Source of the DNA: Escherichia phage Pu-Krd-SF1
Strand: one strand, 5' to 3'
Sequence record: PQ249395
DNA length: 64,000 nt
This document shows, one piece after another, positions 13,556-14,365 of the stretch. The translations under genes and the position numbers were made by a program. Under the pieces are notes generated by a model, which did not search any database, was not told the origin of the DNA, and saw only the letters and a list, made by a program, of their open reading frames with translations. How positions within the stretch are numbered: the stretch's first letter is position 1; each line of letters starts with the position of its first letter.

Positions 13556-13889
13556 AATTTTGGTTTTATGTGTAGGATTAATTTCATTTTCTGCGTTAGC
13601 AGATATATCATATTCTGAAGTTAGAGAGTATGTAAACCGTACTGCCGCGGATTATTGTGGGAAAAATAAAGCATGCCAAGCTGAATTTGCGCAGAAATTA
13701 ATATATGCATATAAAGACGGAGAAAGAGATAAATCAAGCAGATACAAGAACGATACTTTATTAAAACGATATGCTAAAAAGTGGAATACCTTAGAATGTT
13801 CAGTTGCGGAGGAGAAAGATAAAGCCGCTTGTCATTCAATGGTTGACCGTTTAGTAGATTCTTATAATCGAGGATTGAGTACTAGATGA
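13548..13889 (+). CDS. secreted small protein (positional vs)
   Basis: Signal peptide MTKILVLCVGLISFSALA; 113 aa. Confidence 0.5.
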   Translation: MTKILVLCVGLISFSALADISYSEVREYVNRTAADYCGKNKACQAEFAQKLIYAYKDGERDKSSRYKNDTLLKRYAKKWNTLECSVAEEKDKAACHSMVDRLVDSYNRGLSTR

Positions 13890-14365
13890 TTGTAAAATAT
13901 ATCAAGGGCGATATTGTCGCCCTATTTCTTCAAGGTAATATTATTGCGCACGGGTGCAATTGTTTTCATACTATGGGTTCAGGTGTAGCGGGTCAATTAG
14001 CAAGGGCCTATCCTAAAATTTTAGAAATAGATAAAACCACTACTGAATATGGTTCTCGTGATAAATTAGGCGATATGTCTATTGTTTTTAAACATAGTCC
14101 TGCGGGATTTGGTATATGCTATAATCTGTATACGCAATACGAACCGGGTCCTAATCTTGATTATGGTGCTTTAGTAAACTGCATGATAGAATTAAATCTA
14201 CAGGCAGAAACCCTTTTGTTTAAACCAGTAATTTACATCCCACGCATAGGTTGTGGTATTGCTGGCGGTGATTGGGATAAGGTTTCTAAATTAATCGACA
14301 TGTTTACTCCTGATATTGATTTAATAGTGGTGGATTATGAAAGTACATTACCCTCATCCGTTTGA
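13886..14365 (+). CDS. macro-domain protein (ADP-ribose binding/hydrolase fold)
   Basis: KGDIVAL...GNIIAHGCNCFHTMGSGVAGQLA and IPRIGCGIAGGDWD. Confidence 0.65.
   Translation: MIVKYIKGDIVALFLQGNIIAHGCNCFHTMGSGVAGQLARAYPKILEIDKTTTEYGSRDKLGDMSIVFKHSPAGFGICYNLYTQYEPGPNLDYGALVNCMIELNLQAETLLFKPVIYIPRIGCGIAGGDWDKVSKLIDMFTPDIDLIVVDYESTLPSSV

Follow-up and report, generated by a model that had tools for sequence, protein, structure and literature searches.

The tk.4 locus of phage Pu-Krd-SF1

The DNA analysed here, hereafter the window, is a stretch of 64,000 nucleotides from Escherichia phage Pu-Krd-SF1 (PQ249395) and is Tequatrovirus DNA. At 13886..14365 (+) it carries a tk.4/adfM-type gene that runs from an ATG start to a stop codon and encodes a protein of 159 aa, as the initial annotation had described, with the opposite strand of this interval closed by many stops. 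The gene belongs to a tightly packed, co-oriented block in which the order regB-vs.1-vs-(macrodomain gene)-tk.3-tk.2-tk is that of T4, where the slot between vs and tk.3 is occupied by tk.4, annotated as "phosphatase; contains A1pp phosphatase motif". To judge from the sequence, the macrodomain gene represents the Pu-Krd-SF1 allele of T4 tk.4 (adfM). Across the region, Escherichia phages Pu-Krd-SF5, SF6 and SF7 show 100% identity and many other Tequatroviruses 98%.

A Shine-Dalgarno-like GAGGA, read from the sequence, is located at 13870..13874 (+), 11 nt 5' of the tk.4 ATG, and the vs stop codon (13887-13889) shares bases with the tk.4 start (ATGA), an overlap that suggests translational coupling of tk.4 to vs. 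A consensus scan identified a sigma-70/T4-early-like promoter (TTTACT-17-TATAAT) at 12485..12513 (+), upstream of regB, as the nearest candidate for a promoter serving the whole regB-vs.1-vs-tk.4-tk.3-tk.2-tk block, and the number of sigma-70-like sites that the scan returned for the region was not above that of shuffled sequence. From this arrangement we infer that tk.4 would be made early, as part of the regB-vs.1-vs-tk.4 block. A search for a MotA-box middle promoter upstream of tk.4 yielded no convincing site, the one loose match (14167) lying inside the gene. Within codons 7-13 of tk.4, a GC-rich hairpin of 8 bp followed by a T-rich run (13905-13923, +) is annotated as a terminator in some GenBank records of related phages; with a folding z-score of only -1.44 it is probably not significant, and we do not count it as a feature. 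At its other end, the macrodomain gene overlaps the start of tk.3 by 29 nt (14337-14365), as against 4 nt in T4.

The window protein aligns with T4 Tk.4 over its full length and free of gaps, at 57% identity and 74% positives, and at 159 aa it is longer than the 155-aa T4 protein by four C-terminal residues. The stretch that contains this extension (residues ~152-159) has low model confidence and is probably disordered. The first ~30 residues of the two proteins are identical, and both carry H22, N25, D49, N80, Y82, T83-Q84, P119 and W130. The phosphate loop reads GCGIAGGDW here and GAGIGKGNW in T4 Tk.4, differing at four positions while retaining the family-invariant residues. At the nucleotide level, a sliding window along a MAFFT alignment revealed 95-100% identity to T4 in the flanks and in the first ~115 nt of tk.4, whereas codons ~39-159 (14000..14360, +) are only 42-70% identical to the corresponding T4 sequence (NC_000866 60922-61389). 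One edge of this divergent patch falls inside tk.4 and the other at the start of tk.3. Because the patch is so sharply set between nearly identical flanks, the tk.4 allele reads as an exchanged, cassette-like replacement. Alleles at least 90% identical to that of the window occur in about 311 phage records and alleles at least 90% identical to the T4/T2 allele in ~224, with ~159 more records at 80-90% identity to T4, and at least three tk.4 allele groups exist among T-even phages.

A second divergent patch (14600-14740) covers the 3' end of tk.2, with 52-65% identity to T4, and is followed by a gap of 177 nt relative to T4; tk.1 is absent and tk.2 abuts tk. Elsewhere in the window, a homolog of T4 gene 61.2, encoding AdfA, the first described anti-DarTG1 factor, lies at 55016-55639 (+) with 98% identity. 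Of the three anti-DarT factors named in T4, two have homologs in the window, and the third, AdfN (30.3), presumably lies outside it.

Macrodomain class and active site

The macro-domain motifs on which the initial annotation had based its assignment are borne out: GNIIAHGCNCFHTMGSGVAGQLA spans residues 17-39 and IPRIGCGIAGGDWD residues 118-131, and the Pfam Macro profile (PF01661), for which the gathering score is 22, is matched at 32.2 bits (E=1.1e-7) over positions 2-117 of its 118. A further match, at 8e-72, is to PHROG 335, which bears the label "phosphatase". AlphaFold returned a pLDDT of 34 on the single sequence, and an alignment of relatives was needed for a usable model. With 103 relatives (38-96% identity) from public genomic and metagenomic data, AF2 produced a single-domain model (pLDDT 94.7, pTM 0.89) that displays the three-layer alpha/beta/alpha macro fold anticipated in the initial annotation, its nearest structures being of the ALC1/TARG1 class. 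In fold comparison the model scored 18.1 against BT1257 (2AFC, the representative of a BT1257/SCO6735 cluster), 17.4 against Mycobacterium tuberculosis DarG, 17.1 against yeast Poa1p, 16.5 against human TARG1, 16.3 against Thermosipho DarG, and 13.8 or less against coronavirus and MacroD-type macrodomains. Foldseek agreed with this comparison, its top match being human TARG1/OARD1 (4J5S; E=3.5e-10, TM 0.72-0.83).

Sequence searches delimited the same neighborhood. A search of PDB sequences ranked BT1257, Poa1p, SCO6735, DarG and TARG1 in that order, and the profile of the Tk.4 family (T4 Tk.4, the window protein and their relatives) ranked BT1257, TARG1, SCO6735, Poa1p and DarG, so that the nearest structures are TARG1, DarG, SCO6735/BT1257 and Poa1p, and not those of MacroD or PARG type. 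DarG was also the sole NCBIfam and the sole PADLOC match, and the NCBIfam DarG model (NF048014) scored 27.6 bits against an equivalog cut-off of 250 and aligned over profile positions 2-142 of 338 only. Given the fold comparison, the Foldseek result, the two rankings and the sub-cut-off DarG match, the Tk.4-type protein is best placed as a stand-alone ALC1/TARG1-like macrodomain. It is predicted to bind ADP-ribose, the pocket motifs N25, MGSG (30-33) and GCGIAGG (122-128) being visible in its sequence.

The key residues of the protein are H22, N25, the MGSG of loop 1 (30-33), D49, N80, Y82, T83, Q84 and loop 2 (P119-RIGCGIAGGDW-130). Alignment with DarG and TARG1, using reference sequences that were 100% PDB matches, places Q84 in the column of DarG K80 and TARG1 K84 (MAFFT; hhalign probability 98.7%), with T83-Q84 opposite DarG T79-K80 and TARG1 T83-K84 and the motif YTQ in place of the DarG FPTK. 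In the same alignments (MAFFT, hhalign), A126 stands opposite TARG1 D125 and N25 opposite DarG N22. Q84, N25, H22, D49, N80 and Y82 are invariant among the 103 relatives (38-96% identity) and among 80 bacterial relatives, which were gathered with a search pattern that did not include Q84, and all six are kept in T4 Tk.4. G23, within the H22-G23-C24-N25 motif, is likewise invariant across the Tk.4 family. D49 (window 14030-14032) is specific to the family, with Tyr in that column in both DarG and BT1257, and is a candidate catalytic or structural determinant. Since an invariant Gln84 fills the position of DarG Lys80, the Tk.4-type protein probably does not use the lysine chemistry of DarG.

The initial annotation had let its macrodomain assignment depend on the presence of catalytic residues. 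On this point the outcome is divided: the MacroD/TARG1-type residues are absent (K84/D125 replaced by Q84/A126), and hydrolase activity is not thereby refuted, because SCO6735, which has the same Gln, does hydrolyse thymidine-ADP-ribose DNA (PMC9411070). [quoted passage not shown] Its hydrolysis of thymidine-ADP-ribose DNA is abolished by Q85A and nearly abolished by N27S, and the mechanism proposed for it assigns the positioning of the distal ribose to the Gln and the chemistry to a water molecule held by the backbone (PMC9411070).

The Tk.4 family shares with SCO6735 the Gln at the lysine position and the conserved Asn (Q84/N25 and Q85/N27, respectively), the equivalence of Q84 and Q85 being transitive via DarG and TARG1 and supplemented by the structural alignment in PMC9411070. 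The NMIGQ of BT1257 aligns to the NLYTQ of the family, and the loop PRIGCGxAGGxW is common to the window protein, SCO6735 and BT1257. Overall identity of the window protein to SCO6735 and BT1257 (5E3B, 2FG1/2AFC) is nevertheless only ~26-29%, and the mobile loop of the SCO6735 subclass, which is five residues longer than in DarG/TARG1 and carries Lys89/Lys94, is missing in the Tk.4 family. BT1257 has a 6-residue insertion right after the Gln relative to the Tk.4 profile, and the loop of the window protein, QYEPGPNLDY, has no lysine. By offset from the conserved Asn rather than by direct alignment, G23 takes the place of V25, the water-positioning residue of SCO6735, whose proposed role is exerted via the backbone; by the same offset S32 takes the place of SCO6735 K34, and it stands opposite DarG K29 in the alignment. 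Because the mobile loop is absent, G23 and S32 differ, and D49/N80/Y82 are invariants of its own, the window protein is evidently not a plain member of the SCO6735/BT1257 subclass.

Differences from the remaining ALC1/TARG1-like proteins are equally marked. DarG (Thermus aquaticus and M. tuberculosis; 5M31, 5M3I) and PhiKZ gp104 have the catalytic lysine within FPTK where the Tk.4 family has YTQ, and DarG further possesses a second, DarT-binding C-terminal domain and a darT neighbor, whereas the window protein is one domain of 159 aa. PhiKZ gp104 can hardly be aligned with the window protein (BLASTP E=0.001 over 45 residues, at the C-terminus only). Since gp104 is of the lysine type and so hard to align with the glutamine-type window protein, T4 Tk.4 and PhiKZ gp104, both called AdfM, are at the level of sequence different macrodomain lineages with different active sites. 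TARG1 resembles the window protein in size, in its single domain, in H32 (H22 here) and in the PRIGCG loop, and differs in the catalytic dyad K84/D125, which corresponds to Q84/A126.

Similarity to yeast Poa1p (6LFQ) bears on the possibility that the protein is an ADP-ribose 1''-phosphate phosphatase that clears an NAD-derived metabolite, as the GenBank label "phosphatase / A1pp motif" would have it. That label is a homology transfer, and the similarity to Poa1p is strong in the N-terminal half only: residues 3-79 match with 29.5 bits, the C-terminal half matches weakly, with 9.9 bits (domain E=6.3), and the loop-2 motif of Poa1p, PQINSGIAG, differs. Nor is there a tRNA-splicing link in the phage, and we regard a Poa1p-type activity as highly improbable.

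Anti-DarT factors and the proposed function

T4 tk.4 was connected to DarTG2 defense in a preprint of November 2025 that employed HIDEN-SEQ on a T4 transposon library (bioRxiv 10.1101/2025.11.20.689424). In that screen tk.4 alone reached significance on a DarTG2 host, its insertions being selectively depleted when DarTG2 was present, and a clean tk.4 knockout turned DarTG2-sensitive in a plaque assay. The gene was named adfM (anti-DarT factor Macrodomain), a structural likeness to M. tuberculosis DarG was noted, and removal of DNA ADP-ribose by T4 Tk.4 "seems likely" in the words of the authors, whose evidence in the accessible part of the preprint is genetic (bioRxiv 10.1101/2025.11.20.689424). 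The name AdfM was given independently to PhiKZ gp104 (Cell Reports, 2026), which in vitro strips a DarT2-modified oligonucleotide of its ADP-ribose, an activity that N23A lowers (PMC13309987). The proof for PhiKZ gp104 is biochemical and that for T4 Tk.4 genetic only. A 2026 JACS paper on hydrolase specificity contains no phage macrodomain data. The basic picture is thus already published, and the window gene is a divergent allele of a recently described anti-defense factor. Reversal of host-toxin DNA ADP-ribosylation, which the initial annotation had offered as conjecture, matches the genetics of the syntenic T4 tk.4 (bioRxiv 10.1101/2025.11.20.689424).

We consider it probable that the protein removes DarT2-attached ADP-ribose from thymidine in single-stranded phage DNA, a function to which the orthology with T4 tk.4 and its genetics, the macrodomain identity, the conserved active site and the SCO6735 precedent all point. 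By analogy, the window allele would have the same activity and target as T4 Tk.4. In the proposed mechanism, DarT2 of a host DarTG2 system would ADP-ribosylate thymidine in single-stranded phage DNA and so block replication; the phage macrodomain would grip the ADP-ribose by N25 and the two glycine-rich loops; the N-glycosidic bond would be hydrolysed by a lysine-independent route that depends on Gln84, held in place by Asn25; and replication of the phage would be restored once the ADP-ribose is gone. The Gln84-dependent detail of this scheme commands somewhat less confidence than the function itself.

Several observations run counter to an anti-DarT2 function. Identity to the T4 protein that was tested is only 57%, and the phosphate loop of the window protein differs; the DNA-handling features of SCO6735 (the longer mobile loop, K89/K94 and, judged by offset from the conserved Asn, K34 and V25) are missing; and none of 80 bacterial loci with a relative has a DarT2 homolog within ~6 kb. 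For T4 tk.4 itself the support comes from a preprint, in whose accessible part it consists of the transposon screen and the plaque assay of the clean knockout (bioRxiv 10.1101/2025.11.20.689424). An acidic pI of 5.03 was also considered as a case against DNA binding and rejected, the pI of PhiKZ gp104, a proven DNA de-ADP-ribosylase, being 5.05.

A rival reading is that the protein neutralises DarT2 mainly by binding and inhibiting the toxin, or by shielding the modified DNA, and not by hydrolysis; in the accessible preprint text the evidence for T4 tk.4 is purely genetic. SCO6735 inhibits DarT without catalysis as well: in vitro, DarT is inhibited by each of the catalytically dead variants SCO6735 Q85A, DarG K80A and TARG1 K84A, most strongly by that of SCO6735 (PMC9411070). 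On the other hand, a DarT-binding C-terminal domain like that of DarG is absent from this single-domain protein of 159 aa, and Q84, N25 and the rest of the ADP-ribose pocket do not vary among phage and bacterial relatives with no DarT2 homolog within ~6 kb, a pattern which fits selection on catalysis or ligand binding and not on a toxin interface. Neutralisation by binding or shielding is in our view very unlikely as the main activity, and hydrolysis of the DarT2 modification is the reading retained here.

Distribution, origin and significance of the Tk.4 family

Relatives of the window protein were detected by tblastn in 2780 of 50,697 phage records, with hosts that include Pseudomonas, Vibrio, Acinetobacter and Aeromonas. 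Bacteria encode relatives too, at 34-44% identity and at more than 485 loci in species-representative genomes; spread over many phyla, these occur commonly in Rhodobacterales, Desulfobacterales, Verrucomicrobia, Planctomycetes and others. With Pseudomonas aeruginosa DarT2 as the tblastn query, no homolog was found within ~6 kb of any of the 80 bacterial loci analysed, nor in the window (best E=4.4). A recurrent neighbor family was sought among 618 clustered flanking ORFs, and none emerged beyond lineage-specific synteny, with neighbors such as isoleucyl-tRNA synthetase, RpoC, S12 and SecA. The bacterial relatives are single genes in ordinary, non-conserved chromosomal neighborhoods, with no toxin gene recognised nearby. 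An origin as an orphan antitoxin was rejected, the search having found no DarT gene in the window or beside the 80 bacterial relatives. The lack of a DarT2 homolog at all 80 loci, together with the lack of a recurrent neighbor, makes the Tk.4 family look like a cellular stand-alone enzyme acquired by phages and not like an orphaned DarG.

If the family did not originate as a DarT-linked antitoxin, its native substrate could be something else, and DarT2 reversal might be one activity of a broad ADP-ribose eraser directed against other or additional defenses, whether these use ADP-ribose linked to protein, to RNA or otherwise to DNA, or signals derived from ADP-ribose. SCO6735 and TARG1 do act on both protein and DNA substrates (PMC9411070), and the occurrence of the family in phages of many host genera (2780 records), as well as in bacteria with no DarT2 homolog within ~6 kb, is compatible with such breadth, as is the invariant, family-specific D49. 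Against it, DarTG2 is the only defense with a tk.4 hit in the accessible part of the preprint (bioRxiv 10.1101/2025.11.20.689424), T-even phages have, according to the accessible part of the report on it, retained their sensitivity to CmdTAC, an mRNA ADP-ribosyltransferase (PMC11618068), and guanine-linked DarT1 damage is handled in T4 by another protein, AdfN (30.3, a NADAR protein), which in turn does not counter DarTG2 (PMC11825919). A broad eraser is thus an unlikely description of the protein, and removal of DarT2 marks from thymidine continues to be the preferred one.

The initial annotation had also connected the macrodomain to the phage's own ADP-ribosyltransferases. ModB (60912/60924..61547) and ModA (61544..62146) are indeed present and intact, 96% and 97% identical to their T4 counterparts, and both alignments keep the R-S-E residues of T4, in agreement with the triad that had been reported for them. 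We take these positions, in the numbering of Tiemann et al. 2004, to be R73/S111/E173 in ModB and R72/S109/E165 in ModA. In ModB a further ATG lies in frame, four codons ahead of the T4 start (MEAIMIIN...), and the start at 60924 matches that of T4. T4-type phages encode three ADP-ribosyltransferases, the third of which, Alt, would presumably lie outside the window.

The co-occurrence of ModA and ModB with the macrodomain in one genome would suit a role in reversing or tuning modification by Alt, ModA and ModB. Alt and Mod modify arginine, though, and we know of no ALC1/TARG1-class macrodomain that reverses arginine-linked ADP-ribose. A distance of 47 kb separates the macrodomain gene from modB/modA, which belong to another gene block, and the phyletic spread of the families differs: ModB-like enzymes occur in 1011 phage records, nearly all of enterobacterial T4-like phages, and at least 1769 phage records contain the macro family with no detectable Mod-like ADP-ribosyltransferase. 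The depletion of T4 tk.4 insertions was specific to the presence of DarTG2 (bioRxiv 10.1101/2025.11.20.689424). These points tell against the link to ModA/ModB, and we find such a role, the weakest of the rival explanations, scarcely credible.

The assignment gives a functional name to a gene that many of the phage genomes carrying it still list as "phosphatase" or "hypothetical protein", and the current literature leaves unstated that there are two AdfM lineages, that the lysine chemistry of DarG is probably not used in the Tk.4 family, and that tk.4 appears as an allele cassette in T-even phages. The tk.4 allele may matter for phage therapy and for host-range prediction if alleles differ in the DarT2 variants that they counter. 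More tentatively, and as a reading that we hold possible without expecting it to prevail, the Tk.4 family could be a third catalytic type within the ALC1/TARG1-like macrodomains, a recruited cellular repair or clean-up enzyme that is lysine-less like SCO6735, has the short loop of DarG/TARG1, carries Gly for Val, and has Asp49/Asn80/Tyr82 of its own. Were this true, T-even phages would have recruited a cellular repair or clean-up enzyme rather than stolen an antitoxin, a thymidine-linked (or other) ADP-ribose lesion would be a common cellular problem beyond DarTG, and the exchange of tk.4 alleles would be the mark of a continuing arms race against variants of the toxin.
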